Source: Candidatus Gastranaerophilales bacterium
GTDB taxonomy: Bacteria > Cyanobacteriota > Vampirovibrionia > Gastranaerophilales > UBA9971
Direction: 5' to 3'
NCBI GenBank assembly: GCA_028281965.1
Contig: JANQIY010000092.1
Location: 1 to 54,361 of the forward strand
DNA: 54,361 nucleotides
Part shown: positions 36,726-54,361 of the stretch, one piece after another
Layout of the letters: each line of letters begins with the position of its first letter
Numbering within the stretch: position 1 is the stretch's first letter
Made by a program: the position numbers and the translations under genes
The notes under the pieces: generated by a model
Databases searched by the model: none
The model's input: only the letters and a program-made list of their open reading frames with translations
Told to the model about the DNA's origin: nothing

Positions 36726-36755
36726 TGATAGAAAATTAAAAAAAAGGGGTAAAAA

Positions 36756-38220: not shown

Positions 38221-38439
38221 CTAATAATCAAAATCAAACAATTGTTGAATTTTGATGTTTAAGGCGTTAGATAACTTTAACATCGTATCTAAACTGGGTT
38301 TTCCTACTGCCCTTTCAATTTTCCCCACAAATTTTGGATGAATGTCCGCCAATTCAGATAAATCGTTCTGGGTCAAACCTTTTTCGACCCGTAATTTCTT
38401 TATATGCTTCCCCAGTTCTCTATAAAAATTTTCAAACAT
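38221..38439 (-). CDS. XRE-family HTH regulator (Cro/early-region-like)
   Basis: 72 aa. KGLTQNDLSELADIHPKFVGKIERAVGKPSLDTMLKLSNAL. Confidence 0.7.
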   Translation of the reverse strand: MFENFYRELGKHIKKLRVEKGLTQNDLSELADIHPKFVGKIERAVGKPSLDTMLKLSNALNIKIQQLFDFDY

Positions 38440-38512
38440 AAATTAAATATTAATGTTATATTAATTTTGTTAAACACCCAGGCTGGGTCTCTTTAAGTTA
38501 TAGGAGAACAAA

Positions 38513-38662
38513 AATGGAAAAGAATAAAATTAGCCGGGAAGAAGTATATTCAGGACTAATAACCGACGCAAGACTGATAATTGACGAGCTTGAACATATA
38601 CTTGAACAAGTCTTAAAGGAAAACACCGAACTTAAAACCCGATCCGGAAATAAAGATCAATA
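38513..38662 (+). CDS. unannotated small ORF (49 aa)
   Basis: ATG preceded by AGGAG (38501-38505). Product MEKNKISREEVYSGLITDARLIIDELEHILEQVLKENTELKTRSGNKDQ. It is below the track cut-off. Confidence 0.4.
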
Positions 38663-38937
38663 AATTAAAATTTAATTAACTCATTCTGGTATAAAAGAAT
38701 TGAAGCAATAAAAATGACAGGAATTGAAATTTTACAATTTGGAATAGCTAGCGGTTTTTTTATTTTAATATTAATTGCCGCTGTAAAAATGACTAAAAAG
38801 CCTGTTCACAAAGAAAACCATAAATAATTATTTTGGATGACGTTTATTATGTTAATTTTAAACGTTTTTTGAATTTTACACACAATACTGCGTCCCAAAA
38901 AAATAAACCCCGCATAAGCCAGATTTTGTGAGCTTTG

Positions 38938-39036
38938 TTAATGTTTTAAATCTGCATCTTTAGGCATTGAGATGAAAGAAATATAAGCAATGCCGCCAAA
39001 AACAATAATAGCTGTTAATATAGCAAGATATTCCAT
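38938..39036 (-). CDS. unannotated single-TM peptide (32 aa)
   Basis: MEYLAILTAIIVFGGIAYISFISMPKDADLKH. AAAGGAA RBS. It starts 4 nt after the stop of 39041..39301. Confidence 0.35.
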   Translation of the reverse strand: MEYLAILTAIIVFGGIAYISFISMPKDADLKH

Positions 39037-39040
39037 AAAG

Positions 39041-39301
39041 TTATTCCTTTTTCTCCAAATTTTTTAATTCTTTTAATATTGTATCAATCTTTTTATTAAA
39101 GGAATAGATTATTAATATTAGTATAATAATTAAAGCAAATCCGCTAAAAATAAAAACAGTTTCAACAATACCCGGTTCTATTCGACAAGCGCTTAAAAAT
39201 AAACCAACTGTAGCACCAGATGAAAGCAAAAAAGCATTCCATACTCCCATTCTGTATGTTCTGAGGGTATTTAACATTTCAATTAAGTATTTATCGTTCA
39301 T
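39041..39301 (-). CDS. small two-TM membrane protein
   Basis: 86 aa with two hydrophobic helices and a charged C-terminus. Confidence 0.45.
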   Translation of the reverse strand: MNDKYLIEMLNTLRTYRMGVWNAFLLSSGATVGLFLSACRIEPGIVETVFIFSGFALIIILILIIYSFNKKIDTILKELKNLEKKE

Positions 39302-39514
39302 AAGCTGTTTATAAGTTTATCTATACTGCTTATAAGAGAGCTTAGCATAACTTGAACGAAAAAATAACCGATAATATTTATTATGTAACACGGGTCGTTT
39401 TTAGTAATTTGTGTGCTTCTATATACCCCCGGAAAATAAAGCGGGCTTAAAATTGATTCTGTGAGCTCTATATTGATTAAAATTTTGCTTTTTATGAAAT
39501 TCGAAAAAACCTGA

Positions 39515-39544
39515 TCAGAAATATAATTTCTGAAAATCAGAAAT
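39515..39544. promoter_or_regulatory. candidate operator (TCAGAAAT half-sites)
   Basis: Perfect palindrome tcagaaat-ata-atttctga (39515-39533) plus a third tcagaaat (39537-39544). Confidence 0.3.
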
Positions 39545-39567
39545 TATTATATGCAAAAATCTTAAGT

Positions 39568-39598
39568 AAAAAATAAAAACAGGGGCAAATGCCCCTGT
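39568..39598 (-). terminator. intrinsic terminator
   Basis: The minus strand reads acaggggc-attt-gcccctgt followed by tttttatttttt. It lies 38 nt after the stop of 39636..40016. Confidence 0.7.
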
Positions 39599-39635
39599 AA
39601 AAAGGAAGTCAGTGTGATTAATAAAGAATCTAAAG

Positions 39636-40016
39636 CTATACAGCTATTAAATCTAAATCTTCTCTGCTGATAAGTCTGTTTGTAGCTAGTTCTCGCACTT
39701 CCTGGCGGATTTTGTTCCTCTTTAAATCCCAGAAAGTATTACAGTAATGGAACCCTTTCGCAGTATTTTTCCTATACTGCCGATGTTTTTTAGCCTCAAC
39801 AAGCCTGTGTTGATTTTCCTCAAGAAAATTTACAGCCCGTTTTCCTCGCAGGATTTGTTTTTCAATCCGGCCCAAAACACTGATTTTTTCCATTTCAAGT
39901 AAAAGAACCTTGCAACTGGAATTGCTACAATACCCTACTTTTAAAACATGTAAACCTTCTTCATCCGTAAACATAAACCTTTTCGGCCTAACCAGTCTTC
40001 CGCAACATTTAAGCAC
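39636..40016 (-). CDS. hypothetical protein (GTG start)
   Basis: 126 aa. The GTG at 40016 lies 7 nt after AAGGGGG. The protein is Cys-containing and basic, with no motif recognised. Confidence 0.5.
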   Translation of the reverse strand: MLKCCGRLVRPKRFMFTDEEGLHVLKVGYCSNSSCKVLLLEMEKISVLGRIEKQILRGKRAVNFLEENQHRLVEAKKHRQYRKNTAKGFHYCNTFWDLKRNKIRQEVRELATNRLISREDLDLIAV

Positions 40017-40319
40017 TCAAAAACCCCCTTGTCGATCTCTTCTCAGGATATATACATACTCACGGCAAACACCGAACACCATTTAAGCCGTTTTTCTATG
40101 ACATACATCCTGCCGGTCCAAGAATCCGCCAAGCCATTCCGCTAAGCACCAGGACAAGCATATCACCCGTGAAACAACTTTGGAACTTAACCATTTTAAT
40201 AAAATACCAGCTGTAGTAATTATTTCGTTGTTTTATTAATCCCTGAGCGAAAACAGCAGATTAATTCCAGTGATATTTTGATTTTAGCAAAAGTTTATAT
40301 GCTCATTTGTAAACTTAGA

Positions 40320-40574
40320 TTAAGTATCCCTACGGAATATAGAAGATTTTATTAACTTTATATCAGACAGCCTGTAAAGCTCATCTAAAAATTTATGTTT
40401 ATCTTTTATAAGGATTTCAACACTATCATATATATGTATTTTCTCCGTTAACTGCTTTAAAGTGTTGTAAGCACTTATCCAGCGTTTAAAATAAACATTA
40501 AACCTGTTGATTTTACTTTCATCCTCTACCAGCTCAGAAATAAAATCTTCTAAAAAAATTTCTTTTTTGTTCAT
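40320..40574 (-). CDS. hypothetical early-region protein
   Basis: 84 aa. It is the first minus-strand gene leaving the divergent switch region opposite the CI-like gene. Confidence 0.45.
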   Translation of the reverse strand: MNKKEIFLEDFISELVEDESKINRFNVYFKRWISAYNTLKQLTEKIHIYDSVEILIKDKHKFLDELYRLSDIKLIKSSIFRRDT

Positions 40575-40719
40575 ATAACAACCCCTTTTTACATAAACAC
40601 CCTTAATACACTAGGTTTTTATCCAGCTATAAATTTTTTATATTTCGTTTTTATAGTTTAATAAAATTTTCTAAAACATTTTAAGGTTTATTCTTATGTC
40701 TAACCCTAAAGTATAAAGT

Positions 40720-40752
40720 TATCAAAAAGTAATCCTGGTATACTTTTTGATA
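40720..40752. promoter_or_regulatory. 12-bp inverted repeat in the divergent switch region
   Basis: tatcaaaaagta (40720-40731) / tactttttgata (40741-40752) with a 9-nt spacer. Confidence 0.35.
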
Positions 40753-41029
40753 GTAAAAAACAATGCACCGAAAAAATATTTATTTTTATAACGTTTAATT
40801 ATTTACTAAACTTAATTTTTTGAAATAAACGCAAATATATAAATTGCTATTTTTTTATATTAATAAGCACCTGATCTTATTTTACATTTTATTCATCATA
40901 ATTTACATGAAAATAGTATTCAAATTTGCATATCTTGTGCTATATTTATAAAACATATAAACTACATTGTAAAGAATTTTATCTATAAAGTCAAGGAGTT
41001 TTTCCTTAGTTAAGAAAATTTTTAATATT

Positions 41030-41440
41030 ATGAAAACATCAGAAAGATTAAAATATATTAGACAACAAACAGGATTAAGCCAGGAAAGGTTTGCTGACCT
41101 GCTTAAAGAAAAATTGAGCAGGATTAATAGCATTGAAGCCGGTAAACAAGCAAAATTTCCGTATGATTTAGCGGAAAAAATCCTTAAAACTTTTCCGGAG
41201 CAATACTATAACTTTAAGTGGCTGACCACCGGGGAAGGAGAGCCTTTTATCAAGAATATTCCGCGTAAATTAATACAAAAAGCCGAAAAAATTGCTGAAA
41301 AGCTTTTAAGTAAAGTAACGGATGCAGAATTTGAACTTTTAATGAAATGTTTAAAAGAAAACAAAGAATTAACAATAATGTTCCTAAAAAAACTCCAAAA
41401 TGATGAAAGATCAATTAAAAGTTTTTTATTGGATAATTAA
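41030..41440 (+). CDS. CI-like phage repressor (HTH)
   Basis: 136 aa. RLKYIRQQTGLSQERFADLL...INSIEAGK...WLTTGEGEPF matches the CI-repressor HTH family signature WLxTGEG. Confidence 0.7.
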   Translation: MKTSERLKYIRQQTGLSQERFADLLKEKLSRINSIEAGKQAKFPYDLAEKILKTFPEQYYNFKWLTTGEGEPFIKNIPRKLIQKAEKIAEKLLSKVTDAEFELLMKCLKENKELTIMFLKKLQNDERSIKSFLLDN

Positions 41441-41667
41441 CTCGAATCTCTAATTGCATACATGCAATATTTGCCAAAACCCAACCATGAATGAGCTACT
41501 GCGTTAGCTCCCGCTGCCGCGCACAGCCACCCTAAAGGTGAAAAAGAGGCTACGCCGCGAAATGCGGACAGCGCCGCCTGCTTCGCGCCTCTTTTCGATT
41601 CTCTATAATTTTTTGGCAAATGTTGCATATTCATATCCTGGCTTTTGGCTAATTCGCAACTCAAGTT
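41439..41667. repeat. dispersed nested-palindrome element (long form)
   Basis: It is collinear with 12908..13066 and has the same orientation, but carries two internal insertions, including the aatgcggacagcgccgcctgcttcgc block. It overlaps the CI-like stop codon. The track ORF 41437..41676 is its translation. Confidence 0.85.
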
Positions 41668-41682
41668 TTTAAGCATTCAGGG

Positions 41683-42480
41683 TTAATCATTTGGCAGGAC
41701 AAATCCATATTCTTTTAGTATTTTTTGCCCGCTTTCTCCTGAGAGAAATTCCACGAATTTTTGCGCGATTTGTTTTTTGGCGGAATTCTGCAAAACCGCA
41801 ACAGGATACTCTGCAGTCACGTTGAACTTCTCATCAATTTGCACAGGCCTGATTTTATCGGAATTTTCGTTTGTTATGTCTGTTGCGTAGACTATGCCTG
41901 CATCAACCTCGCCAAGTTCAATTTTTGCAACGACGCTTTTTACGTTTAGCTCTTTGCTTATGATATTTTTAAGGAATTTTTCCTTAAAATCAGCGGGAAA
42001 ATCCTGTGATTCCCGGATTTTACCAAGCACGGCAAGCGTATACCTGCCGGCAGGGACGGCTTCATCTGCTATGGAAATTTTTACCCCGGGCTTTGCAAGG
42101 TCTTTTAATTCGCCAACACCCGTTAATTCCCTGTTAATCACCGCAGTAAGCCTGTTTTTAGCTATTATTACAGGACTTTTAGCAAGGTTTTGCCCTACTA
42201 AAATGTTCATATACTTTTGATTTGCGCTGGCAAAAACATCAGCATATATCCCCTGCCGTATTTGTTGTGCCAGCTTTTGGCTTCCTGCAAAGTTAAGCTC
42301 GACTTCAATTTCCGGATATTTTTCCTCAAATTGTTTTTTCGCCGCGGTAAAAACCTGTGTCATGCTTGATGCGGCCATTACCCTTATACTTGTTGCGGTT
42401 TTCTTTTGCCCGCATCCTGAAAGGGTAATGACAGATATAACCACAACAATTAAAGTTATGTAATCAGCAATTTTTTTCAT
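41683..42480 (-). CDS. modA: molybdate ABC transporter substrate-binding lipoprotein
   Basis: 265 aa. Lipobox LSGC, with IRVMAASSMTQ..., FASAN and AEYPVAV blocks typical of ModA. It overlaps the ferredoxin gene by 4 nt. Confidence 0.8.
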   Translation of the reverse strand: MKKIADYITLIVVVISVITLSGCGQKKTATSIRVMAASSMTQVFTAAKKQFEEKYPEIEVELNFAGSQKLAQQIRQGIYADVFASANQKYMNILVGQNLAKSPVIIAKNRLTAVINRELTGVGELKDLAKPGVKISIADEAVPAGRYTLAVLGKIRESQDFPADFKEKFLKNIISKELNVKSVVAKIELGEVDAGIVYATDITNENSDKIRPVQIDEKFNVTAEYPVAVLQNSAKKQIAQKFVEFLSGESGQKILKEYGFVLPND

Positions 42481-42779
42481 GGTATTAATAATCTTTCTAC
42501 TGTTGAATTTTCTTCCAATGCGTCCATAATTTCCTCAACGTCATCAGGGGTAACACTGCCATACCAGGTCCCCTGGGGATAAATAACCACAACCGGGCCT
42601 TTATCGCATATCCCGAAACAGCCGGTGTTATTTACCATTGCAGAAATTCCCCTGTCCTGGATTTCTTCCAGGAAATTTGCGGCAATCCCCGCCGCGTCCT
42701 TGGATATGCAAAACCCTTTCTGCTGGCCGTTTATACGGGAACTTGAACATACAAAAATATGACAATCAGGTTTTTTCAT
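42477..42779 (-). CDS. thioredoxin-fold [2Fe-2S] ferredoxin
   Basis: 100 aa. The Cys11/Cys24/Cys54/Cys58 spacing closely mirrors the clostridial 2Fe ferredoxin ligand pattern (11/24/56/60 as I recall). Confidence 0.7.
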   Translation of the reverse strand: MKKPDCHIFVCSSSRINGQQKGFCISKDAAGIAANFLEEIQDRGISAMVNNTGCFGICDKGPVVVIYPQGTWYGSVTPDDVEEIMDALEENSTVERLLIP

Positions 42780-42797
42780 AAAATTCCTCCTTGTTAA

Positions 42798-44033
42798 TTA
42801 AGCTTCACAAACTGCAGGGATTTCAGCAAAGGCTTCTGATGATCTTATAATACCGTTTTGCACGGTATCGTATATTTCAAATACTTTAAATCCGGCATTT
42901 TTAAGTTTTGCTTTAGGCTCAGAACCTATCCTCATTGAAAGTACCGCTGCGCAGTCTTTTAAAGTATCTGCTATACTTATAATATAGTCTTTTTTATCCT
43001 CACAATCTTCTTTGCCGGTACAATACCTTGGAACTTTCCTTTTATCTATAAGCTCTATTTTGTTATTAGCGAATTTATAGATAAAAAATTCCTCAACCTG
43101 CCCGAAATGCTGGTCAATTATTTTTCCGTCGCTTGTCGCAACAGCAAAAACGTAAATGTCTTCACGGGAAGTTTTACGGGAAACCCGGGAAGAACAGCCT
43201 CCCCTGAATTCGACTGACCTGTCCCGGTGCAGCAGGCCTATTGCATCCGCCCTGCACTGCCGGCAATGATACATCTGGCTTATGTAGCCCGAGCATTTTT
43301 TTCTTATTTCGTTTAGCCTTTTGTTACTTAGCATCTCAACATTCTCAAATTTAGTATTTGGAGCGGGTATTAACTGCATTATGTTTGTTTTAAAAGCCCC
43401 CAGGGCTTTTACCTTTTTTGCAATTTCTTCTATGTGCCCTTCGTTAATATCTTTTATGGCAACGATGTTTACTTTGCAGATTATATCCCTTTCCGCAAGA
43501 TATTTTAGTCCCTGAAGCTGGTTTTTTATAAGGATTTCCGCTGCTTCTTCACCCGTGTAAACTTTTCCCCGGTAATTAATATACTCATAGATTTTCCCGC
43601 CAATTACCCTGTCTATAGCATTTATAGTTATCGTAACGTGAGTTATGCCTGAATTTACGATTTCTTCGGCGTAATGAGGCAGCATGAGCCCGTTTGTTGA
43701 AAGACAAAAAAGGACTTCAGGATCGGCGCCGCTTATTAATTCTATGGTTTTTTTAACTTTGTCAAAATTGGCAAGGGCGTCTCCCGGGCCTGCAAATCCA
43801 ATTACAGAGAGGTTTTGAACCTTCTCTTTCACTTTCAGGAACTTATCGAGGGATTGCCCGGGGGTTAGGATTTCACTTGTAACTCCCGGCCTGCTTTCAT
43901 TCACACAGTCATAATCCCTATGGCAGTAATTGCACTGGATGTTACAGGCAGGAGCAACAGGTAAATGCATTCTGGCATAGATCTTATGCCCGGTATCAGA
44001 AAAACAGGGATGTTTGTGTATTTTAATGCTCAT
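42798..44033 (-). CDS. nifB: nitrogenase cofactor biosynthesis radical-SAM protein NifB (with C-terminal NifX-like domain)
   Basis: 411 aa. HPCFSD..ARMHLPVAPACNIQCNYCHRDYDCVNESRPGV, plus a C-terminal NifX-fold domain. Confidence 0.9.
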   Translation of the reverse strand: MSIKIHKHPCFSDTGHKIYARMHLPVAPACNIQCNYCHRDYDCVNESRPGVTSEILTPGQSLDKFLKVKEKVQNLSVIGFAGPGDALANFDKVKKTIELISGADPEVLFCLSTNGLMLPHYAEEIVNSGITHVTITINAIDRVIGGKIYEYINYRGKVYTGEEAAEILIKNQLQGLKYLAERDIICKVNIVAIKDINEGHIEEIAKKVKALGAFKTNIMQLIPAPNTKFENVEMLSNKRLNEIRKKCSGYISQMYHCRQCRADAIGLLHRDRSVEFRGGCSSRVSRKTSREDIYVFAVATSDGKIIDQHFGQVEEFFIYKFANNKIELIDKRKVPRYCTGKEDCEDKKDYIISIADTLKDCAAVLSMRIGSEPKAKLKNAGFKVFEIYDTVQNGIIRSSEAFAEIPAVCEA

Positions 44034-44048
44034 TTCTACTTCCTATAA

Positions 44049-44336
44049 TTAAATTTTTTCAATTGCCTTGACCGGATCCGGGACTTCAGTTTCAATAATT
44101 GCCTTTATCCCAAGGTTATCAAGGTTTTGTATCATACCTTCCCCGATTTGCCCGGAAATTACAGCGCCGCAATCAAGGATTTCATCTATGATGTGGTCTG
44201 TATAGCTGCCTTTTCCGATTCTTTTTTCAATAAAATCCACTGTGCCGTTTTCATAATTATATATGAAAAAAGTTTCAGCCCTACCCAGGTGTGGAGCCAC
44301 TTTTCCTTCTTTGTCAACACTGACTGCTATTTTCAT
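44049..44336 (-). CDS. NifX/NifB-C-terminal family FeMo-cofactor-binding protein
   Basis: 95 aa. MKIAVSVDKEGKVAPHLGRAETFFIY... has the typical small dinitrogenase FeMo-cofactor biosynthesis domain. Confidence 0.7.
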   Translation of the reverse strand: MKIAVSVDKEGKVAPHLGRAETFFIYNYENGTVDFIEKRIGKGSYTDHIIDEILDCGAVISGQIGEGMIQNLDNLGIKAIIETEVPDPVKAIEKI

Positions 44337-44399
44337 TCTTTTTTCTCCTTTTTATTATAGTGATCTTAAAAAGTAATCAGGAAATTAATTAAATTTAAA

Positions 44400-44545
44400 A
44401 ATAAAAAATGCCTGAAACTACCATCCCCCTGCCCCCTTCCTTCAAAGGAAGGGGGAAACCGTTTTGGGTAGGGCTTCGTGCGTAATGCGGACAGTGCCGA
44501 CCGGCCCCTGCACCTAACCCTTAAAATACTTCTATTACTGCTTTT
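44400..44545. repeat. divergent member of the dispersed repeat family inside the nif operon
   Basis: It shares the aatgcggacag block (44484-44494) and has the hairpin cccccttcc-ttcaaa-ggaaggggg. The track ORF 44366..44554 is its translation. Confidence 0.6.
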
Positions 44546-44615
44546 CATCCTCATTTATTAAATCCTGTTTATTTTCTCAGATTACTATACTTTTATTATG
44601 GGATAGCTGTTGAAA

Positions 44616-45986
44616 TTAACTTGCGTACTTAGCGTAAATCCTGTTCCTGTAGGTAGTGTATTTCCTGTCAAGATAGGTGTTTGTGAGCAAGTCCAGAAAC
44701 CTTGTCGACCCTTCATAACCGGCAAACATAATCCTCTGGCTGCCTATCCGGTCATTTACCGGGAATCCGTACCTTACCAGCGGAATCCCGTCTCTTTCCG
44801 TTATGAACTTACCGTCTGAATGCCCGATCAAAAGGTTAACGTCAAGCTGCTTGACCAGTTCCCTGATTGTCTCAAAGTCTGTATCATCAATAATAACGGG
44901 GGTTTCATGAAGGTTATTCATTTCTTCCTGCTTTTGAAGCAGGGATTGAAGCCTGGAAGTCTTTGACCCCGTGGAGATCAACGCCGGAAGAATCCCATTT
45001 TCCAGGCACATCCTGCTAGCAGCGTATACGGATTCCGGTTCGCCAAAAATTGCCGCCCTTATTTCCGAATTGTACTTATGCGAATCTATCATCGCATCAA
45101 GCATTCTGCCCCTCTCTTTTGCAAACCTATCCGGAATTTCCCGGCCGGTTACTTCGGATAAAATCCTTAAAAATTCATCGTTATTTTGCAGCCCGATTGG
45201 AATTGAACACCTATAAAGCGGTACTTTATAAGTGTCATTAAGGTATTCTCCCGGAGAAACCGCTTTATCGGCCAGTTTGCTTATTTCAACAGTCGCCCTG
45301 GCTCCTGCCGCCCTTTTTATGTTTGAAAAAGAAGACCCCCCTGGAGGTATTTTAGAGAAAGAGTAAGCAAATGGAGCATCGAGCGTTTCTGAAAAATCCG
45401 GTATCAGGTTGTATTCGACCTCATATTCTTTTAAAACATCTTTTATAAACCTGACTTCGGCCGGTGTAATATTTGGGACTATTATATTTATTGAGTTATT
45501 GGGCTTTGTTTCTTCTGTAAGGTACTCAATGATTTTTCTTACAGCCTGGAAATACCCTTCAAACTGGGTCGCCCCGTATCCCGGGGTTGAAACCGGGACA
45601 AAATGCCTGTCATTGAGGTTTTCTTCCTCTATAAATTCCCGGATAATCATATCTATATTTTCACCGATGGTCTCGGCAAGACATGTTGTGGCTATCCCGA
45701 TGATTTTCGGGTCATAAAGCCTTATAACGTTTTTAAGCCCATTTTTTAAGTTTGCAGCGCCGCCGTAAACCGTTCCTTTTTCGCTTAACGAGGATGATGC
45801 AACATCTATCGGCTCGTTATAATGCCTTGCCATGTGTCTTCTGATATACGTACTGCATCCCTGGGAGCCATGCAGGAGCATCATCGCATTTTCAATCCCC
45901 TTGAACGCAATAGCTGCGCCCATTGGCATACACATCTTACAGGGATTTACGTTTAAATTGGTAAAATTTCGTTTGTTTTTCATCAT
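44616..45986 (-). CDS. nifN: nitrogenase FeMo-cofactor scaffold subunit NifN
   Basis: 456 aa. NifK-like CKMCMPMGAAIAFKGIENAMMLLHGSQGCSTYIR. It follows nifE after a 15-nt gap. Confidence 0.85.
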   Translation of the reverse strand: MMKNKRNFTNLNVNPCKMCMPMGAAIAFKGIENAMMLLHGSQGCSTYIRRHMARHYNEPIDVASSSLSEKGTVYGGAANLKNGLKNVIRLYDPKIIGIATTCLAETIGENIDMIIREFIEEENLNDRHFVPVSTPGYGATQFEGYFQAVRKIIEYLTEETKPNNSINIIVPNITPAEVRFIKDVLKEYEVEYNLIPDFSETLDAPFAYSFSKIPPGGSSFSNIKRAAGARATVEISKLADKAVSPGEYLNDTYKVPLYRCSIPIGLQNNDEFLRILSEVTGREIPDRFAKERGRMLDAMIDSHKYNSEIRAAIFGEPESVYAASRMCLENGILPALISTGSKTSRLQSLLQKQEEMNNLHETPVIIDDTDFETIRELVKQLDVNLLIGHSDGKFITERDGIPLVRYGFPVNDRIGSQRIMFAGYEGSTRFLDLLTNTYLDRKYTTYRNRIYAKYAS

Positions 45987-46001
45987 TTCCTCTTTAAAAA
46001 A

Positions 46002-47375
46002 CTAAATTTTAGTCCTTATATGCCGCCAGACCGGACTGTTTACCGAGGCGTCAACCTCTTTTGCAAAGTTAACCGCCCCTTCAAACCCGCATAAAGGATG
46101 TTTTCTTTCGTGGTTATGGTCACAAAACCCTATTCCCAGCTTGTAAGCCAGCGGTCTTTCCTTCACCCCGCCGATTAAAAAATCCGCCTTCTGTGTTTTT
46201 ATAAAATGTTCAAGCTCTGTAGGGTTTGAATCATCGACTATTATTGTGCCTTCGTCGGTCAATTCCCTTATATTGTCGTAATCCTCTTTTTTCCCGGTTT
46301 GCGTCCCAATCAGGACAGGCTTTATATCAAGGTCTTTTAACTGCTTTATTAACGAAACCGCTTTGAACCCGCCTCCGACATAAGCCGCGGCTCTCTTACC
46401 CCTGAGCCTGTCACGGTATTTCCCTAGCTGGAATTCTGTTATACTTGCCTGTTCCTCGGTAAATTCTTCCGCTTTTTCTATGATTTCCGGGTTTTTAGTC
46501 ATCATGGCGATTCTAAGCATTGATTTTACAGTGTCTTCCACGCCGATAAAACTGATTTTGATAAACGGCAGGCCGTATTTTTCCTTCATCAGCTTGCCCA
46601 GATAGCCCATGGAACCGGCACATTGAATTATATTAAACGATGCTGCCGGGGCTTTACGTATTTCTTCAATTGTAGAATCCCCGGTTATCTTTGATACAAC
46701 ATCGATTCCAATTTCCCTGAGATAATTTTTAATTATCCAGATTTCTCCCGCAAGGTTAAAATCGCCAAGAATGTTTATTAAATTGCCTTCGGGCTGCTTC
46801 GCAGCCCTCGTAACGTCAGGGGAATGAGCATTTTCTGTCTCCATTAACCTCATCAGGGCTTCACAGGCAGCTCTGTAGCCCATTGCCTTGTTGCCCGCAA
46901 ATCCCGTAGACTGCACAGGGATCACGTTTATGCCGTGTTTTTCAGAAGCAATCCTGCATACGGCTTCCAGGTCATCGCCAATTACCCCGACAACGCAGGT
47001 GGAGTAGACAAAAACCGCTTTTGGCCTGTTTTTTTCAGTAATTTCATCAATTGCGGCGGCCAGTTTTTTTTCGCCTCCAAAAATTATGTCATCTTCCCGC
47101 AGGTCAGTGGAAAAACTGTTCCTGTAAGTTTCTTCCCCGCTGCTCAGGCTCCCCCTGATGTCCCAGGTGTAACTTGCGCAGCCTATCGGGCCATGGACAA
47201 TGTGAACAGCATCGGTAATAGGGTTCAGCACAACACGCGCGCCGCAATAAACGCATGCCCGCTGGCTCACCGATCCTTCAAGGCTGTTTTTATCGCATTT
47301 TATGGCACGGTTGTCTTTTTTATTGCAGACTATAAAATCCTGTCTTTCATCTAATGTTTTAATATTTGCGTTCAT
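46002..47375 (-). CDS. nifE: nitrogenase FeMo-cofactor scaffold subunit NifE
   Basis: 457 aa. NifD-like CVYCGARVVLNPITDAVHIVHGPIGCASY and IIQCAGSMGYL. Confidence 0.85.
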   Translation of the reverse strand: MNANIKTLDERQDFIVCNKKDNRAIKCDKNSLEGSVSQRACVYCGARVVLNPITDAVHIVHGPIGCASYTWDIRGSLSSGEETYRNSFSTDLREDDIIFGGEKKLAAAIDEITEKNRPKAVFVYSTCVVGVIGDDLEAVCRIASEKHGINVIPVQSTGFAGNKAMGYRAACEALMRLMETENAHSPDVTRAAKQPEGNLINILGDFNLAGEIWIIKNYLREIGIDVVSKITGDSTIEEIRKAPAASFNIIQCAGSMGYLGKLMKEKYGLPFIKISFIGVEDTVKSMLRIAMMTKNPEIIEKAEEFTEEQASITEFQLGKYRDRLRGKRAAAYVGGGFKAVSLIKQLKDLDIKPVLIGTQTGKKEDYDNIRELTDEGTIIVDDSNPTELEHFIKTQKADFLIGGVKERPLAYKLGIGFCDHNHERKHPLCGFEGAVNFAKEVDASVNSPVWRHIRTKI

Positions 47376-47394
47376 TTTTTACCCTTATCCGCTG

Positions 47395-48768
47395 CTACAT
47401 TACAAGTTCAAAGTCACAATCTTCCGCATCCCTGTCTTCACGGTCTAAAATAGCGTTGCTTATCATTTCAATAAGCCTCATTGCTCCTTTATATCCCGCT
47501 ACAGGCATATAAGAATGTACGCTCCTGTCGAGAATCGGGAATCCCAGCCTTACAAGCGGTATATCTTCCGCTTTTGAGATATACTTGCCGTAAGTGTTGC
47601 CGATTATCAGGTCTACAGGGTCATTTTTAATCCATTGGTGAAGTGTAAACAGGTCACCTGCGGCTTTTACCTGGTAATTTACAGCCACGTCCATCATCAG
47701 CTCGTTAATTTCCCGGGAGAAAGCTTCCCCGGGAGTCCCGGTCAGGATGTACTTCGGCCTCATTCCCAGGCTGAGGCAGAATTCGGTCATGGCGGTTACA
47801 ATGTCCGGGTCGCCAAATATAGCGACTTCCTTGCCGTGGAAATGCATATGGGTGTCGGTCATAATGTCGACAAGCTGTCCCCTCTCTTCCTCAAGCTCAT
47901 AAGGCACTTCTTTCTGGGTTAATTTCAAAAGTTTCATTATGTAATCGTCAGTTGCCCTGATCCCAATAGGAGTTTTCAGCACGTAAGGCTTAACTCCGCA
48001 TTTTTTCTCCAGTTCAAACGCTCCCTGCTCGGATGCGAATTTCCCAAGCGCTACAGTTGCCTTTGAATCGCCGGTTTTTGCTATATCATCAACCTTAGCG
48101 CCGCCCCGTGGGTACATTTCATACTTTCCAGTATTAGGAGAATCCACAACACCTGATGTATCAGGGAACATAATGTATGGAATCCCCAGCAATGAGGTGA
48201 TTCGCTTGATTTCCCGCATATCTGCCGGGTTAACAAACCCGGGAATTATGTTTATATTGTCGGTCTTCACTTCCGGGTGGTCTGAGGCGGATTCGGCGAG
48301 GTAATTGACTATTCCTTTTACCATGTTTGAAAAACCGGTAATGTGCGAACCCTGGTAACTCGGGGTATTGGCATGGATCATCCTTTTTCCCTCGGGGATT
48401 TCAATATCGGCAATAATTGCGTTGATATCATCCCCAATTGTCTCAGACAGGCAGGTCGTATGAACAGCTATAACGTCCGGGTTATAAATGGCAAAAATGT
48501 TTTTTGCCGCTGTTTTTAAATTGCTTTTCCCGCCAAAAACCGAGCTGCCCTCAGTAAATGAACTGGTAGAAGCCATAACCGGGTCGCGAAAATGCCTTGT
48601 CAGGTGCATTCTATGGTAAGAACAACACCCCTGCGAGCCGTGGCTGTGCGGAAGGCACCTGTGGATTCCCAGCGCCGCATACATTGCGCCGATCGGCTGG
48701 CATGTCTTGGCCGGGTTTATAATCAGGGCCTCTCTTTCTTTTAATTCTTTCGGGGTTAAGTCTAGCAT
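47395..48768 (-). CDS. nifK: nitrogenase MoFe protein beta subunit
   Basis: 457 aa (short N-terminus). CQPIGAMYAALGIHRCLPHSHGSQGCCSYHR P-cluster Cys motifs. AGGGAGA RBS. Confidence 0.9.
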   Translation of the reverse strand: MLDLTPKELKEREALIINPAKTCQPIGAMYAALGIHRCLPHSHGSQGCCSYHRMHLTRHFRDPVMASTSSFTEGSSVFGGKSNLKTAAKNIFAIYNPDVIAVHTTCLSETIGDDINAIIADIEIPEGKRMIHANTPSYQGSHITGFSNMVKGIVNYLAESASDHPEVKTDNINIIPGFVNPADMREIKRITSLLGIPYIMFPDTSGVVDSPNTGKYEMYPRGGAKVDDIAKTGDSKATVALGKFASEQGAFELEKKCGVKPYVLKTPIGIRATDDYIMKLLKLTQKEVPYELEEERGQLVDIMTDTHMHFHGKEVAIFGDPDIVTAMTEFCLSLGMRPKYILTGTPGEAFSREINELMMDVAVNYQVKAAGDLFTLHQWIKNDPVDLIIGNTYGKYISKAEDIPLVRLGFPILDRSVHSYMPVAGYKGAMRLIEMISNAILDREDRDAEDCDFELVM

Positions 48769-48855
48769 TTTATTTTATCTCCCTGGTTTAAATGATAAAT
48801 ATTTTCAATATTTTAGTGTGTAGATTTGTAATTAACCTGATGAAATTTGCCTGAT

Positions 48856-49042
48856 TGTCATTCCGAGGAGCGAAGCGACGTGGGAATCTGGCCGGCGTGG
48901 AATTTAACTATATATTTTGAGGCTTTAATAAGGAGTTTCCCGGATTGCCAGGGGTAAAAATGAGTTAAAACTCCTGTTCCCCCAGGCTAAAGCCCTCGCA
49001 ATGAAATGTGTTCGCTTTGTCGCTTCATTTCTTGCAATGAGG
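48856..49042. repeat. cluster of hairpin repeats in the nifD-nifK spacer
   Basis: tgtcattccgaggagcgaagcgacgtgggaatc (48856-48888), aggagttt...aaactcct stem, and ccctcgcaatgaaatg...catttcttgcaatgagg (48993-49042). Confidence 0.65.
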
Positions 49043-49049
49043 CCTTTTG

Positions 49050-50690
49050 CTATTGTTCAACCGATTCCGGTATATAGCTGACCTCGCCTTCAAGCGAAGG
49101 CTCTTTTTTCCACGGCGGCACAAGGTAACTCCACGTCGGGGTGTGGATTCCCATTGCAATATCCCTTGCGAAATTAACCGCGCCTTTAAATCCCGCATAA
49201 GGCCCGCCGTAGTCGTAAGAGTGCATTTGCTTGGAAAATATCCCCATTTTCTGGGCAATATACTTGTCTTTTATCCCCGAACCAAATACGTCAGGTTTCA
49301 ATATCCTGATTAGTTCTTCTGTTTCATAATGGTTAAGGTCGTCTATGACTACGCTTCCGTCTTTCATTTCGTTAATCATCCCGGCGTAGTTATTTAGAGG
49401 GATTTCCTGTTCTAATTTTTCCCGTCTTTGAGGGGGAATTACAATTCTGTAGTTTTGAGGGTCTTTCTGGACGTCAAGGTCTTCGATGTTTCGGTTATCC
49501 GCGTCAATCTGGATGTCCGGAATAACATGCCTGCCCTCATAATCGTCCCTGTGGGCGAATTCATAACCGGCTAAAACCGTTTCAATACCGATTTCCTTGT
49601 ATAAGCCCTGGTAATGGTGAGCCCTTGAGCCTCCCACAAACAGGAATGCCGTTTTCCCCGCGCATTGCCCCCTGTAATACTCAACATCCTCCCTGATATC
49701 CTCCAGTTCCTCTTTTATAACTTCTTCCGTGCGGCTGAGGATTTCCGGGTCATCGAAAAATTTCGCCATGTCCCTCAGAGTCCTGACAGTTGCTTCAATG
49801 CCGATAAAATTCACTTTTAACCACGGCGTGCCGTACTTTTTTTCAATCATTTCAGCGATGTAGTTAATCGACCTGTGGCATTGAACGAGGTTAAGATCGG
49901 CTTTATGGGCATTTCTCAGCTCTTCGGTCGTGCCGTTGCCCGTCATCCTTGCGATTATGTTATAGCCGATTTTGCTTAATATCCTCGAAATTTCCCATTC
50001 ATCGCCTCCGATATTATACTCTCCCAGAATGTTTATAGAGTATTTTGGAGCTACAAAGTCGTTATTTGAGCCGATAACGTGTTTCATCAGGGCGTTATTT
50101 GCTATATGATGTCCGCCTGACTGGCTTACGCCTTTGTAACCTTCACAACTGGTGGCAAAAATAGTAATCCCATATTCCTTTTCGGCTTCTGCGGCAACGG
50201 AATTAATGTCATCACCTATAAGCCCCACCGGACAGGTGGAACATATTGCTATGTTTTTGGGGTTAAAAATCTCTACGGCCTCTTTTATAGCCTGCTTTAA
50301 CTTCTTTTCACCCCCGAAAACAATGTCTTTCTCCTGCATATCCGTTGAAAAAGAGTAGGGAAGGTAATTTTGCTCTCCTTCTTTTGGTTTTCCCTTATGC
50401 CTCCTGGTTCCCCAGGCATAATAAGAACACCCTATCGGGCCGTGGACTATGTGCACCATATCCCTTAAAGGCCCAAGCACAACGCCTTTACAGCCTGCGT
50501 AACAGCAACCCCTGTTTGTTATAATCCCCGGGACCGTCCTGGTGTTTGCTTTTATCTGCTGCTTATCCTGCGAGCAATCCCTGACAAGCATGTGCTCTTT
50601 CCTGTTTTTGGAAACCTTTGCCGGATAGGAATATAGCAGCTTGTCTATTACGTTGTCTATCTTCTCTTTTGAAAAATCTTTATCATTCAT
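49050..50690 (-). CDS. nifD: nitrogenase MoFe protein alpha subunit
   Basis: 546 aa. FeMo-co ligand contexts LVQCHRSINYI (Cys275-equivalent) and QMHSYDYGGPYAGF (His442-equivalent), plus P-cluster Cys motifs. It has a long insertion (see findings). Confidence 0.9.
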   Translation of the reverse strand: MNDKDFSKEKIDNVIDKLLYSYPAKVSKNRKEHMLVRDCSQDKQQIKANTRTVPGIITNRGCCYAGCKGVVLGPLRDMVHIVHGPIGCSYYAWGTRRHKGKPKEGEQNYLPYSFSTDMQEKDIVFGGEKKLKQAIKEAVEIFNPKNIAICSTCPVGLIGDDINSVAAEAEKEYGITIFATSCEGYKGVSQSGGHHIANNALMKHVIGSNNDFVAPKYSINILGEYNIGGDEWEISRILSKIGYNIIARMTGNGTTEELRNAHKADLNLVQCHRSINYIAEMIEKKYGTPWLKVNFIGIEATVRTLRDMAKFFDDPEILSRTEEVIKEELEDIREDVEYYRGQCAGKTAFLFVGGSRAHHYQGLYKEIGIETVLAGYEFAHRDDYEGRHVIPDIQIDADNRNIEDLDVQKDPQNYRIVIPPQRREKLEQEIPLNNYAGMINEMKDGSVVIDDLNHYETEELIRILKPDVFGSGIKDKYIAQKMGIFSKQMHSYDYGGPYAGFKGAVNFARDIAMGIHTPTWSYLVPPWKKEPSLEGEVSYIPESVEQ

Positions 50691-50710
50691 TAAACTTACC
50701 TCATGTCGCT

Positions 50711-51094
50711 TTATACTGCTACGAGTCCTGTCTCAGCCGTCCTCACCCTGACCGCGTCAAGTACCGGGAGGATAAAAATCTTGCCGTCGCCGGGGTTGCC
50801 TGTCTGGTTGGTTGAAATTATTATCTCAACGGCTTTACCTGCTTCATCATCGTTTACGACTATTGTTAACATCCTTTTAGGTACCAGCCTGTGACCTTCT
50901 GAAACCGATTCCGCCACTATCGGCGATTCAATTTCCCCGCCCTGAAGCAGGCCCTGGATTAACTCGTAGTCAACTTTCTTTTTTCCCCTGCCAAATACTT
51001 TCCTGCAGGTAATTGAACTGAAACCGGCTTCCAGCAGTGCTTCTTTTGTTTTGTTAATCATATTCATCCTGATTATTGCCATTATTTCTTTCAT
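50711..51094 (-). CDS. nifI2: PII-family nitrogenase regulator NifI2
   Basis: 127 aa. It is GlnB-like (MAIIRMNMINKTKEALLEAGF...GRGKKK) and is the second PII gene after nifH. Confidence 0.8.
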   Translation of the reverse strand: MKEIMAIIRMNMINKTKEALLEAGFSSITCRKVFGRGKKKVDYELIQGLLQGGEIESPIVAESVSEGHRLVPKRMLTIVVNDDEAGKAVEIIISTNQTGNPGDGKIFILPVLDAVRVRTAETGLVAV

Positions 51095-51114
51095 TTTAAG
51101 CCTACTCCCTCCAT

Positions 51115-51441
51115 TTAAAGCTCATTCAGGCCGCTGCTGATGGTGTATACTTCATCAACTTCGCTGATAAAGATTTTCCCATCTCCAAAAGCTCCTTTTT
51201 CACCGGTTTTTGCGTTTTTAAGTATGATTTTTATCACGTCATCCTGTTCTTCATCCTGAACAACCAGCATTAAAAGCTCTTTAGGGATTTCATCGTAGTA
51301 AACGTCGCCGACTTTGACCCCGCGTTGCTTTCCCCGTCCGGCCACGTCGATTTTTGTAACCGCGGGAAACCCGGCATCACTAAGTTCCGACATTACCTGG
51401 CCGGTTTTTTCCGGCCTGATTATTGCTCTTACCAATCTCAT
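51115..51441 (-). CDS. nifI1: PII-family nitrogenase regulator NifI1
   Basis: 108 aa. It is GlnB-like (VRAIIRPEKTGQVMSELSDAGF..VAGRGKQRG) and is the first PII gene after nifH. Confidence 0.8.
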   Translation of the reverse strand: MRLVRAIIRPEKTGQVMSELSDAGFPAVTKIDVAGRGKQRGVKVGDVYYDEIPKELLMLVVQDEEQDDVIKIILKNAKTGEKGAFGDGKIFISEVDEVYTISSGLNEL

Positions 51442-51615
51442 TCTTTGCTCCTTTACTAAAATTTTGCTTAAAACACTTTTTGTCTTTATTGCTGCAACTC
51501 ACCGGAAGAAGCAGTTAACCCGGGAAACCGGCGCCATTAAGAAGCGTCCCGTAAAACCGGGGAGTATCTTAAAAGTCCGGTTAACGCCACCTGGTTATGT
51601 ATTCGTTTATAAAAA

Positions 51616-52458
<843 letters not shown>

Positions 52459-52638
52459 TTAATACTTTTTAAACTAAACCGAAAACCGGTAATTTTTACG
52501 GGTTCAGTTTTTTACTTAGTCCTTTCGTGTTTAATCTTTTCGTAAATTATATTTTTTGAAAAATTTACAAAATTTCCACTTGATATAATTCTTCAAGTTG
52601 GTATAAAATTATTTTTACTAAATTAATTTGAAAATTTT

Positions 52639-52702
52639 AAAACCCGCTGATTTTTTTTAAGTCTGCGGGTTTTCTTTTTTATAAGTGAAATTTCGCAGAC
52701 TT
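52639..52702 (-). promoter_or_regulatory. two mutually exclusive hairpins (antiterminator/terminator candidate) in the nifH leader
   Basis: Stem 1 is 52702-52694 with 52667-52659 (9 bp, perfect). Stem 2 is 52673-52662 with 52650-52639 (12 bp, one mismatch), followed by AAAAUUUU. The arms share 52662-52667. Confidence 0.5.
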
Positions 52703-52773
52703 TACGTTGTCTGTTTTTGTTGTTGCTGGTTTTGAAACTGCTGCTGGCTTTGAAATTGTTGAAAAACTTTCAT
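52702..52773 (-). CDS. candidate Gln-rich leader peptide (23 codons)
   Basis: MKVFQQFQSQQQFQNQQQQKQTT, with 12 CAA/CAG codons. GGGGAAG lies 6 nt before the ATG. The stop codon abuts stem 1. Confidence 0.4.
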   Translation of the reverse strand: MKVFQQFQSQQQFQNQQQQKQTT

Positions 52774-52824
52774 TAAATACTTCCCCATGATTCTTGTAAG
52801 ATGTTTCTTTATTTTACAATTTGC

Positions 52825-52853
52825 ATTATATAAAATTTAGTTCCGCCTGTTAA
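52825..52853 (-). promoter_or_regulatory. sigma70-type promoter TTAACA-17-TATAAT
   Basis: On the minus strand the -35 is at 52853-52848 and the -10 at 52830-52825, about 50 nt upstream of the leader ORF ATG. Confidence 0.5.
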
Positions 52854-53201
52854 GTGTATTTGATACATTTGTTAAGTTATATTAAGTTAAGAAGCGCTTA
52901 TATATTTACTTTTATTTTTCAGGTTTTTCATTTTTTTTTAAATTTTACTTAAAATTATTTTTGTTTTTAAGTTATTTTCAACTTTTTTTCTTATTTATTT
53001 AATTTTTTATTGCTAAAATCAGATAAATTTTACAAAAAATAATTTTTGAAATTTTAACAAAATTACGTTTAGCATTAACTTTAATTTCTATTAGCGACTC
53101 GAGTCAATTACTTTTTAAGATCACTAAAGTTGCTGAACCAATACTGAAAGAAAGTTAAGGACATGCTAATATTTATTTAAAGTGAACCGGTTTCAGAGTT
53201 T

Positions 53202-54170
53202 ATGTCCATACCTGTATACATACTAAAAAGAATACTTCAGGCGATACCGCTGCTGATTATGGTATCTATAATCAGCTTTATGGTTATAAAGCTAAGCCCT
53301 GTGGACCCGCTGGCGGAATTAAAGATGAACCCGGCAATTTCACCGGAGACCCTTCAAGCGGAAAAAGAGCGTCTGGGACTGGATTTGCCTGCTCATGAGC
53401 AGTATCTGAGATGGGCGGGGAACTTTATCCGTGGGGATCTTGGCGTTTCAACCTCGGGCGAAAAGGTTTCAAACAGGCTTATGGAGAGAATCCCCAATAC
53501 GCTTCTTTTAACAGCGGTGGTAATCCTTGTCACCTGGCTGGCAGCTATACCGCTGGGAATTTACTCTGCTCTCAATTGGAAGACAACGGCCGACAGGGTC
53601 TTGACCATAATATCCTCCGTGGGAATGGCGGTTCCGTCGTTCTTTTTTGCCTTACTGCTGCTGATTTTTGCGGTAAAGACAGGCTGGTTTCCTGTAGGAG
53701 GACTTACCAGCGTTGGGTTTGAAGAGTTCACTCCCGCGGAAAAGTTTATAGATATTGCTCACCATCTTATCCTGCCTGTGATAGTGCTTTCAACAATAAG
53801 CCTTGCGGGCTTGCAGAGGCAAATGCGAGGAAACCTGCTGGATGTCCTGGAATCCGATTATGTAAAAATGGCACGGGCAAAGGGGCTTCCGGAAAACAAA
53901 GTTATTTACAAACACGCTGTGAGAAACGCTGTAAATCCCCTGGTAACAATGCTGGGGTTTGAGTTTGCCGCTCTTTTGAACGGCGCTGCACTTACCGAGT
54001 TTGTTTTGCAATACCCGGGGCTTGGCAGGTTAATCCTCGAAGCGGTTATGAAATCCGACATAAACCTTGTTATGGCCTCGCTTATGATAGGTTCTGTTAT
54101 GCTTATAGCAGGGAATTTAATAGCTGATATCCTGCTTAAGCTGGTTGATCCCAGGGTTAGCCTTGGTTGA
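53202..54170 (+). CDS. ABC transporter permease, Opp/Dpp/Nik (OppB-like) family
   Basis: 322 aa with six hydrophobic segments. N-terminus ILKRILQAIPLLIMVSIISFMVIKLSPVDP and the EAA-type loop DYVKMARAKGLPENKVIYKHAVRNA. Confidence 0.85.
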   Translation: MSIPVYILKRILQAIPLLIMVSIISFMVIKLSPVDPLAELKMNPAISPETLQAEKERLGLDLPAHEQYLRWAGNFIRGDLGVSTSGEKVSNRLMERIPNTLLLTAVVILVTWLAAIPLGIYSALNWKTTADRVLTIISSVGMAVPSFFFALLLLIFAVKTGWFPVGGLTSVGFEEFTPAEKFIDIAHHLILPVIVLSTISLAGLQRQMRGNLLDVLESDYVKMARAKGLPENKVIYKHAVRNAVNPLVTMLGFEFAALLNGAALTEFVLQYPGLGRLILEAVMKSDINLVMASLMIGSVMLIAGNLIADILLKLVDPRVSLG

Positions 54171-54305
54171 CGCATAATTTTTTTAATTCAACCCTCCGGT
54201 CAATTTTTTTTCAAGTATAATGAAAAACTTTAATTTTTCTTTAAAGAGACATCGTCAAACTTAACAGGGCAATTCAGTTCTAAATTGGATAAATTAAACT
54301 TAAAC

Positions 54306-54331
54306 TGTCACCCCGCACTTGATGCGGGGTC
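54306..54331 (+). repeat. TGTCAYYCCG-type hairpin repeat
   Basis: tgtcaccccgcacttgatgcggggtc. Confidence 0.7.
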
Positions 54332-54361
54332 TAGCCAATTAATGCTGATACGCGATAAGTA

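Follow-up and report, generated by a model that had tools for sequence, protein, structure and literature searches.

Organization of the nifH leader region

The subject of this analysis is the leader of the nitrogenase (nif) operon on contig JANQIY010000092.1, examined over its whole length of 54,361 nucleotides (nt; hereafter the window, to which all coordinates refer unless another contig is named). The first gene under control, nifH (51616–52443, minus strand, ATG at 52443), is followed on the same strand by nifI1, nifI2, nifD, nifK, nifE, nifN, a nifB-nifX fusion and further genes. A very AT-rich spacer of 758 nt (14–30% G+C) separates nifH from a divergently oriented gene for an oligopeptide-type ABC permease, the start of which lies at 53202. 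Between 52853 and 52631, on the minus strand, this spacer carries a sigma70-type promoter, a short open reading frame (ORF) in which about half of the codons specify Gln, and two overlapping stems. Judged from the sequence, its conservation and predicted folding, the segment is probably an attenuator of the nif operon in which translation decides between terminator and antiterminator. Promoter, Shine–Dalgarno-like element, ORF, both stems and their overlap had been proposed in an initial annotation of this DNA, and all of them were verified by reading the minus strand. The distance from the U tract that follows the second stem to the ATG of nifH, initially put at about 190 nt, is 188 nt.

The promoter, TTAACA-17 nt-TATAAT (52825–52853; -35 hexamer 52853–52848, -10 hexamer 52830–52825), is an 11/12 match and the top promoter-like site in 52300–53300 and also in 35000–54361; it would place the transcription start near 52818. 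The leader ATG lies 52 nt past the -10 box, i.e., about 45 nt from this presumed start. The absence of a sigma54 element, likewise noted initially, is borne out: no match to the -24/-12 motif TGGCAC-N5-TTGCW with up to three mismatches occurs on the minus strand in 52443–52900, and over the whole window sigma54-like matches are no more frequent than expected by chance.

A block directly upstream of the promoter (52848–52887, minus strand) contains three ACTTAAYA direct repeats (52887–52880, 52877–52870 and 52855–52848, with spacings of 10 and 22 nt), the third of which includes the -35 hexamer, and a dyad, TGTATCAAATACA (TGTAT-N3-ATACA, 52867–52855), located just 5' of the -35 hexamer. In the related leaders introduced below, the repeats are kept in L081 and L082, and the dyad half-sites are kept in L081, where the spacer between them is wholly different, and in L083. 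The block is probably a transcription-factor site, and by this resemblance the promoter itself may be nitrogen-regulated.

The leader ORF and its glutamine codons

The leader ORF (52702–52773, minus strand) comprises 23 codons and a TAA stop codon (52704–52702), and reads MKVFQQFQSQQQFQNQQQQKQTT. Twelve of the 23 codons specify Gln (seven CAA and five CAG), and the distal ones fall within 52711–52728, with Q16–Q19 at 52728–52717 and Q21 at 52713–52711. A weak Shine–Dalgarno-like element, GGGGAAG (52780–52786), lies 6 nt 5' of the ATG; a strong AAGGAG occupies the equivalent position in L082. Initiation at an in-frame alternative ATG at 52788 would extend the leader peptide to 28 amino acids.

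The Gln content is confined to one frame and is exceptional for a short ORF. CAA and CAG triplets are distributed over the three frames as 12/1/0, starting from the frame of the ORF, and when the 382-nt leader was shuffled 2000 times with its dinucleotides preserved, no ATG-initiated ORF of 12–40 codons reached more than six Gln codons, compared with the 12 observed. When ORFs of 8–60 codons in the 54-kb window were scanned for any single residue present in at least seven copies and at a share of at least 40%, the leader was the sole ORF to qualify through Gln, the remaining matches being Leu-, Ser- or Ile-rich. In 604 kb of sequence, three short ORFs carry at least six Gln codons at a share of at least 30%, and two of these are the window leader and its homologue in L081. 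None of the five leader peptides compared here has a match among Pfam and NCBIfam models, which include known leader peptides.

Two mutually exclusive stems and a small hairpin across the stop codon

Four segments downstream of the Gln codons can be assigned to alternative pairings on the minus strand. Segment 2, AAGUCUGCG (52694–52702), begins at the final base of the TAA stop codon and forms the 5' arm of the antiterminator (stem 1), a perfect duplex of 9 base pairs (bp) with the 3' arm CGCAGACUU (52667–52659). The terminator (stem 2) pairs AAAACCCGCAGA (52673–52662) with UCAGCGGGUUUU (52650–52639), with one A·A mismatch, and is followed by the U-tract tail AAAAUUUU (52638–52631). Segment 3 (52659–52673) thus comprises the antiterminator 3' arm and the terminator 5' arm, segment 4 and its tail extend over 52631–52650, and the two stems overlap at 52662–52667 and are mutually exclusive. 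Segment 1, CAGAC (52709–52713), pairs with GUCUG (52700–52696) to give a small 1:2 hairpin of only 4–5 bp across the stop codon; equivalent hairpins of different sequence are present in L081 (GACU/AGUC) and L082 (AGACC/GGUCU), and on the basis of the folding results this hairpin is proposed to act as an anti-antiterminator.

The computed energy of the stem-1 duplex, -14.8 kcal/mol, is far below that of shuffled sequences (-3.7 ± 1.6 kcal/mol, mean ± standard deviation; 0 of 5000 shuffles as low), and that of the terminator is -13.2 to -15.0 kcal/mol. A comparison of the two conformers, suggested in the initial annotation, gives closely similar energies for the window, with -16.3 kcal/mol for the antiterminator and -15.0 kcal/mol for the terminator; the corresponding values in L081 are -19.1 and -21.2 kcal/mol.

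The leader RNA was folded in three states, i.e., with the ORF end free, with the A site of the ribosome on Gln codon 19 (RNA free from +13) and with the ribosome at the stop codon (+12 nt masked); the footprint of a stalled ribosome extends about 12 nt downstream. While the end of the ORF is free, the leaders of the window, L081 and L082 all fold most stably into the 1:2 hairpin plus the terminator. A ribosome at codon 19 makes the antiterminator the most stable structure in the window, by the two conformer energies given above. With the ribosome at the stop codon, the antiterminator 5' arm is covered and the terminator alone can form.

Conservation of the leader in related nif loci

Five full leaders were compared, i.e., that of the window and those of four metagenomic contigs selected through the closest NifH: L081 (NifH 98% identical to that of the window; leader MKNIQQQNQSKQQQQQRL), L082 (88%; leader MNNSKQNTNKKQKRP), L083 (89%; leader MSRFNYTYQNQAFEQWAINKARCL, positions 738–812 of that contig) and L091 (NifH in the same 90% cluster as L083; leader MKWSRFNYIYNNETAEQWTTSQVQCL, positions 1269–1349). 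Contigs L084 and L085 end too near nifH for a full leader, and in L085 (NifH 87%) only the terminator was captured. At fourfold-degenerate sites of nifH, the identity to the window is 50% for L081, 37% for L082 and 34% for L083.

All five full leaders have, upstream of nifH, a short ORF, a terminator made up of a hairpin and a U tract, and an antiterminator in competition with it. The promoter is present in four of the five (window, L081, L082 and L083) as TTAACA or TTTACA and TATAAT or TATATT at a spacing of exactly 17 nt, and the sequence between the hexamers varies among these four while the hexamers and the spacer length are kept. Almost identical in the window, L081 and L082 are the promoter block, the antiterminator 5' arm (A/G)GTCTGCGA and the terminator AACCCGCAGAY...GCGGGTTTTAAAATTT; segment 2 is almost invariant in L081 and L082 with diverged flanks, and GCGGGTTTTAAAATTT is kept in these two and occurs in variant forms in L083, L085 and L091. 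In all five, the paired 5' arm also starts at or close to the stop codon; counted from the first base of that codon, the arm starts at +2 or +3 in the window, L081 and L082 and at -5 in L083 and L091, where a UAG stop codon lies inside the arm. The antiterminator loop is conserved neither in sequence nor in length.

Pairing was counted on a four-sequence alignment (A3), and per-sequence duplex tests took the place of counting on five sequences, the five-sequence MAFFT alignment (A4) being left aside because the 5' arm was wrongly placed in L083 and L091. On A3, 88.9% of the antiterminator cells pair, compared with 22–47% when the partner strand is slid by one to three columns, and two pairs are compensatory (C-G to U-A and G-C to A-U, both in L083), in addition to G-U substitutions; for the terminator, 90.9% of the cells pair. 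A duplex at least as strong as the native one was found in 0, 9, 1, 31 and 1 of 2000 shuffles of the window, L081, L082, L083 and L091 leaders, respectively.

The distribution of this leader is narrow in the material searched. In 80 representative nifH loci from GTDB (L001–L080; NifH 77–85%), no Gln-rich short ORF was found upstream of nifH, and the terminator and promoter motifs of the leader were absent as well. When Joint Genome Institute metagenomes were scanned with a degenerate pattern for the terminator, the only sequence recovered was L088, in which the terminator is unrelated and lies between convergent genes. Contigs L086 and L087 (both NifH 86%), L089 (85%) and L090 (83%) were considered as further members and set aside, as their leaders are of other types. 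The expectation that relatives would carry a Gln-rich ORF with covarying stems is borne out for the layout, which recurs in four contigs with two compensatory pairs in the antiterminator, and for the Gln run in L081 alone.

Proposed mechanism of nif attenuation

That the segment is transcribed, that its ORF is translated, that transcription terminates at the hairpin and that charging of Gln-tRNA is the signal, we infer from the nucleotide sequence. In the mechanism that we propose, the sigma70-type promoter would drive transcription, and the leader of 23 codons would be translated behind the advancing RNA polymerase. With ample Gln-tRNA(Gln), the ribosome would reach the TAA codon and cover segment 2, leaving segment 3 to pair with segment 4, so that the terminator forms and polymerase is halted some 190 nt short of nifH; once the ribosome has gone, the small 1:2 hairpin would hold segment 2. 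When glutamine is scarce, i.e., under nitrogen limitation, the ribosome would lag in the Gln codons, chiefly at Q16–Q19 and Q21, with segment 1 covered and segment 2 free. Segment 2 would then pair with segment 3 as it emerges, half of the terminator would be sequestered, and polymerase would read through into nifH. The nitrogenase operon would in effect be treated like an operon for glutamine biosynthesis.

We lean, with some reserve, towards this mechanism in its full form, in which the signal is specifically glutamine; the architecture and the signal are here judged separately. A Gln-sensing attenuator in front of nif had been suggested in the initial annotation, and of that suggestion the attenuator architecture is supported by conservation and by the three-state folding, while the specificity for glutamine is supported in part.

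Relation to known attenuators and RNA sensors

The window leader shares its plan with the classical attenuators of trpL, hisL, pheL, thrL, leuL and ilvL. These too have a promoter-proximal short ORF enriched in codons for one residue, a stop codon beside segment 2, overlapping hairpins 1:2, 2:3 and 3:4 with a U tract, and a downstream operon that supplies the residue sensed; as in pheL, thrL and ilvL, the regulatory codons are spread across the distal two-thirds of the peptide. Classical leader-peptide attenuators are found in Proteobacteria, with analogues in Actinobacteria and Bacteroidetes. The present leader differs from them in that glutamine would be sensed, and in that the target is a nitrogenase operon and not strictly an amino-acid pathway. 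Further differences are a 1:2 hairpin that is only 4–5 bp long, a terminator whose loop is long and interrupted and whose U tract is short, and the presence of relatives in the same leader family that lack the codon run. The window leader has no sequence similarity to known leader families. Full-text literature searches returned no description of a Gln-codon leader peptide or of leader-peptide control of nitrogenase, in line with the initial annotation, which knew of no described Gln-codon attenuator in front of nitrogenase genes.

Two other kinds of cis-acting regulation offer partial parallels. Like the glutamine riboswitches (glnA RNA and Downstream-peptide), the leader would sense glutamine in cis at the RNA level as a nitrogen signal; unlike them, it has no Rfam match even at E ≤ 10 and no conserved aptamer-like loop, and sensing would be indirect, via tRNA charging and the ribosome. 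At the gathering score, Rfam gave no match in the whole window, and the matches at E ≤ 10 in 52300–53300 are at chance level, with less than one quarter of the gathering scores; those that overlap the leader lie on the opposite (plus) strand, whereas the two on the minus strand are located outside it. As in TnaC/tna and SpeFL/speF, the position of the ribosome near the stop codon of a short ORF would decide between termination and read-through. Those systems, however, depend on Rho and on a conserved peptide by which a free metabolite is sensed in the exit tunnel, whereas here the terminator is a hairpin and the peptide is unconserved but for its Gln content.

Evidence on the signal and alternative explanations

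Several observations weigh against the proposed mechanism. The Shine–Dalgarno element of the leader is weak in the window, L081 and L083. The terminator is non-canonical, with a long, interrupted and partly paired loop. A canonical terminator scan made no call on stem 2 because the loop exceeds 8 nt and only four U follow directly 3' of the stem; of the initial designation as a terminator, the hairpin and its tail stand, and an intrinsic terminator, not of the textbook type, is plausible from the folding. Within the ORF, Gln codons 5, 6, 8, 10–12 and 14 lie too far upstream for a ribosome to mask segment 1, so a hard stall there should permit the 1:2 hairpin and the terminator, and in L081 a ribosome stalled at the last Gln codon would already cover part of segment 2. 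The terminator shows no compensatory changes, and the covariation score was reached by 30 of 500 shuffles; support from covariation is modest because there are only five sequences in three sub-types. The strong Gln run reported initially for the window leader recurs in L081 (9 of 18 codons) and not elsewhere, the L082 leader being Lys/Asn-rich with two Gln codons and those of L083 and L091 having three each. The run is thus not family-wide, and these relatives, and possibly the window too, may respond to another or a broader signal. Lastly, CAG/CAA repeats can persist through slippage.

The translation-coupled attenuator could be real without being Gln-specific, in that it would respond to general translation capacity or to several residues at once (such as Gln and Asn, which in many bacteria are both formed on tRNA by GatCAB), or in that the nascent peptide would itself act as an arrest peptide, with the Gln run as a by-product of slippage; we regard this as unlikely, although it is in keeping with the retention of the ORF/antiterminator/terminator geometry in L082, L083 and L091 with two or three Gln codons. 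The combined share of Gln and Asn also extends over all five leaders (57%, 61%, 40%, 25% and 23% in the window, L081, L082, L083 and L091, respectively). Where GatCAB is used, Gln-tRNA and Asn-tRNA both depend on glutamine, and such a dependence would, speculatively, account for the Asn codons in the related leaders as well. The L083 and L091 leaders, furthermore, have in common the blocks SRFNY, EQW and CL-stop, separated by highly variable codons, and might represent a second leader-peptide type, an arrest-peptide-like variant; the blocks are, however, identical in nucleotides too, so that selection at the level of the peptide is not proven and the constraint may lie on peptide or RNA.

Against a signal other than glutamine stands the comparison of the window with L081. 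Their ORFs differ in length, their CAA and CAG codons differ synonymously and their nucleotides have diverged, and the two peptides have no sequence conservation except in Gln content, Gln being the only enriched residue in either. Even so, the in-frame Gln codons number 12 in the window and nine in L081 (CAA/CAG by frame 9/0/0 in the latter). Retention of Gln richness at 50% neutral-site identity points to selection on the Gln codons and not on the peptide or nucleotide sequence. Every one of the five leaders, moreover, has two or more Gln codons. Glutamine, in which the nitrogen provided by the downstream operon ends up, is also the logical signal for nif, and nitrogen limitation of Escherichia coli causes ribosome stalling that is specific to the two Gln codons (bioRxiv 10.1101/224204; PMC7858274).

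Relief of termination by a protein or a small RNA (sRNA), with the short ORF incidental or modulatory, has a precedent in Geobacter sulfurreducens, where the ANTAR response regulator GnfR allows read-through of terminators in nifH leaders (PMC2995071). This is the nearest parallel, the only nif-specific case of premature termination found in the literature, and it resembles the present leader in having an intrinsic-type terminator in the nifH leader and read-through as the regulated step. Hairpin-plus-U-tract elements upstream of nifH are common in the cluster-III loci examined, and the Gln-rich short ORF occurs in none of L001–L080, which would suit an antiterminator of this kind, ANTAR-type or other. 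The Geobacter system differs in that CAGGCAANGGCGCC is the recognition site of an RNA-binding protein and transcription depends on RpoN, whereas here the promoter is of the sigma70 type and a translated ORF would adjoin the antiterminator. In 52444–52830 the GnfR motif CAGGCAANGGCGCC has no match with up to three mismatches, the nearest (52411–52424) lying within nifH, and a pair of hexaloop hairpins was not seen by eye. The antiterminator loop, where a protein would be expected to bind, is the part that is unconserved. A protein model, moreover, leaves unexplained the placement of the stop codon at the 5' arm, kept in 5/5 leaders, and no ANTAR gene was seen among the scanned proteins of the window, a single 54-kb contig. 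We therefore hold antitermination by a protein or sRNA to be improbable.

A similarly low probability attaches to the ORF being an independent small gene, or the RNA of roughly 180 nt an sRNA, with its own terminator, nifH being then transcribed from a separate activator-dependent promoter in 52444–52630. A perfect TATAAT at 52551–52546 and a palindrome, ACTTGA-N9-TCAAGT (52598–52578), located between terminator and nifH and found also in L082 with a different loop, would fit such a promoter, and in other systems released attenuator RNAs and leader peptides are reported to act in trans (PMC6614838, PMC7968998). Yet within 52444–52630 no -35/-10 pair was called on the minus strand and no conserved promoter was found, and this terminator–nifH spacer is poorly conserved, with large indels that reduce it to about 75–85 nt in L082, L083 and L091. 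A stand-alone gene, in addition, needs no conserved antiterminator that overlaps its terminator, and the peptides of the window and L081 are unconserved outside their Gln content. The spacer holds two further features, i.e., a block, AATTAATTTAGTAAA (52628–52614), directly 3' of the terminator and kept in the window, L081 and L082, and a hairpin, ACCGGTTTTCGGT (52490–52478), that is missing from L081.

Least probable is an archaeal (methanogen) host, in which TTTATATA at 52833–52826 would serve as a TATA box, with hairpins that do not act as an intrinsic terminator of the bacterial type: a prophage terminase that is 50% identical to those of Methanobacterium phages psiM2 and psiM100, a further point against the proposed mechanism, weak sub-threshold matches to archaeal Agl glycosylation families, very AT-rich intergenic regions and a nifH-nifI1-nifI2-nifD order found in methanogens as well are outweighed by the -35/17/-10 elements kept in four leaders, the decay of the TATA-like box to TTACTATA in L081 with TATAAT retained, the exclusively Bacillota affiliation of the nearest named relatives of NifH (84–89%) and NifD (≤74%), a NifB fused to a NifX-like domain, which we take to be a bacterial architecture, lipopolysaccharide (LPS) heptosyltransferase-like genes in the window, a portal protein 44% identical to those of Mu-like phages of Burkholderia and Ralstonia, and a housekeeping-type flavin oxidoreductase with its best named match (69%) in a Gastranaerophilales bacterium. 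Terminator scans of the window gave an enrichment too small to settle the host domain. We take the host to be probably bacterial and possibly Gastranaerophilales-like. The Methanosarcina mazei small protein sP26 (spRNA26) and sRNA154, suggested as counterparts by the nifH-I1-I2-DK order, the AT-rich spacers and the 23-amino-acid ORF, were rejected because spRNA26 differs in its genomic location and start codon and because the nif proteins nearest to those of the window resemble Bacillota ones; spRNA26 encodes a nitrogen-regulated protein of 23 amino acids that begins with Val and adjoins the acetyl-CoA decarbonylase/synthase operon (bioRxiv 10.1101/2020.05.06.080432).

Other nifH leaders and other features of the window

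Hairpin-plus-U-tract elements were found upstream of nifH in 26 of the 87 regions scanned, in several unrelated leader types, and premature termination may accordingly be a level at which nif is commonly controlled in cluster-III loci. Conserved elements of this kind, unrelated to the present leader, lie between a promoter-like site and nifH in nif clusters of the Bacillota and Negativicutes types; they are found about 70–230 nt upstream of nifH (at 1501) in L086 and L087, and about 215–260 nt upstream of nifH in L024, L027, L029, L018, L080 and L061. No description of a mechanism for premature terminators in these other nifH leaders was found. In L090 (1–478; GC-rich, NifH 83%), nif and glnA are arranged differently, a divergent glutamine synthetase gene being the immediate upstream neighbour of nifH across a long structured spacer.

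Elsewhere in the window, a prophage-like block of mosaic affinities extends over about 15700–36300. It includes genes for a TipJ-like tail protein (16782–20681), a portal protein (31324–32571; the 44% match being Mu-like Burkholderia phage phiE255), and the large terminase (34573–35919; the 50% match being psiM2), with an Sll1717-family P-loop ATPase (32971–34485) between portal and terminase. An ORF of 41 codons on the plus strand (23281–23406), 63% of which specify Ser, is antisense to a gene for a 380-amino-acid protein (22929–24071), and probably reflects a repetitive acidic or Gly-rich stretch of this phage gene. The first 14,000 nt of the window (1–14000) hold a cluster of glycosyltransferase genes (GT4, GT2 and GT9 heptosyltransferase-like) together with genes for two large membrane proteins whose similarity to archaeal Agl23 is weak and below threshold. 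This region is likely to serve the biosynthesis of a cell-envelope polysaccharide or LPS, and its indications as to the domain of the host are mixed.

Implications for the control of nitrogen fixation

The proposed attenuator is known so far only from five metagenomic contigs. As a tentative extension of the proposed mechanism, we suggest that in one lineage of anaerobes not yet cultured, the nif clusters of which are of the Clostridia type and show no signature of NifA or sigma54, charging of tRNA(Gln) gates nif through a Gln-codon leader, possibly by way of GatCAB, and that other members (L082; L083 and L091) use differently composed leaders.

The regulation of nif that has been known proceeds through proteins, i.e., NifA/NifL, NtrBC, GlnR, NrpR, PII and ANTAR regulators. 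If the proposed mechanism is true, a cis-acting, protein-free nitrogen sensor would precede nitrogenase genes, and it would be the first Gln-sensing leader-peptide attenuator as well as the first ribosome-mediated attenuator of a nif operon. The fifty-year-old attenuation paradigm would thereby reach glutamine, the central metabolite of nitrogen status, and ribosome stalling at Gln codons under nitrogen limitation would gain a regulatory output. A compact (about 230 nt), host-independent, ammonium-repressible part would also become available for the engineering of nitrogen fixation. Comparison of the loci further suggests that premature termination ahead of nifH is widespread among cluster-III nif clusters and involves several leader types, and the proposed attenuator would provide a testable account of how nif is activated in diazotrophs without NifA and sigma54.

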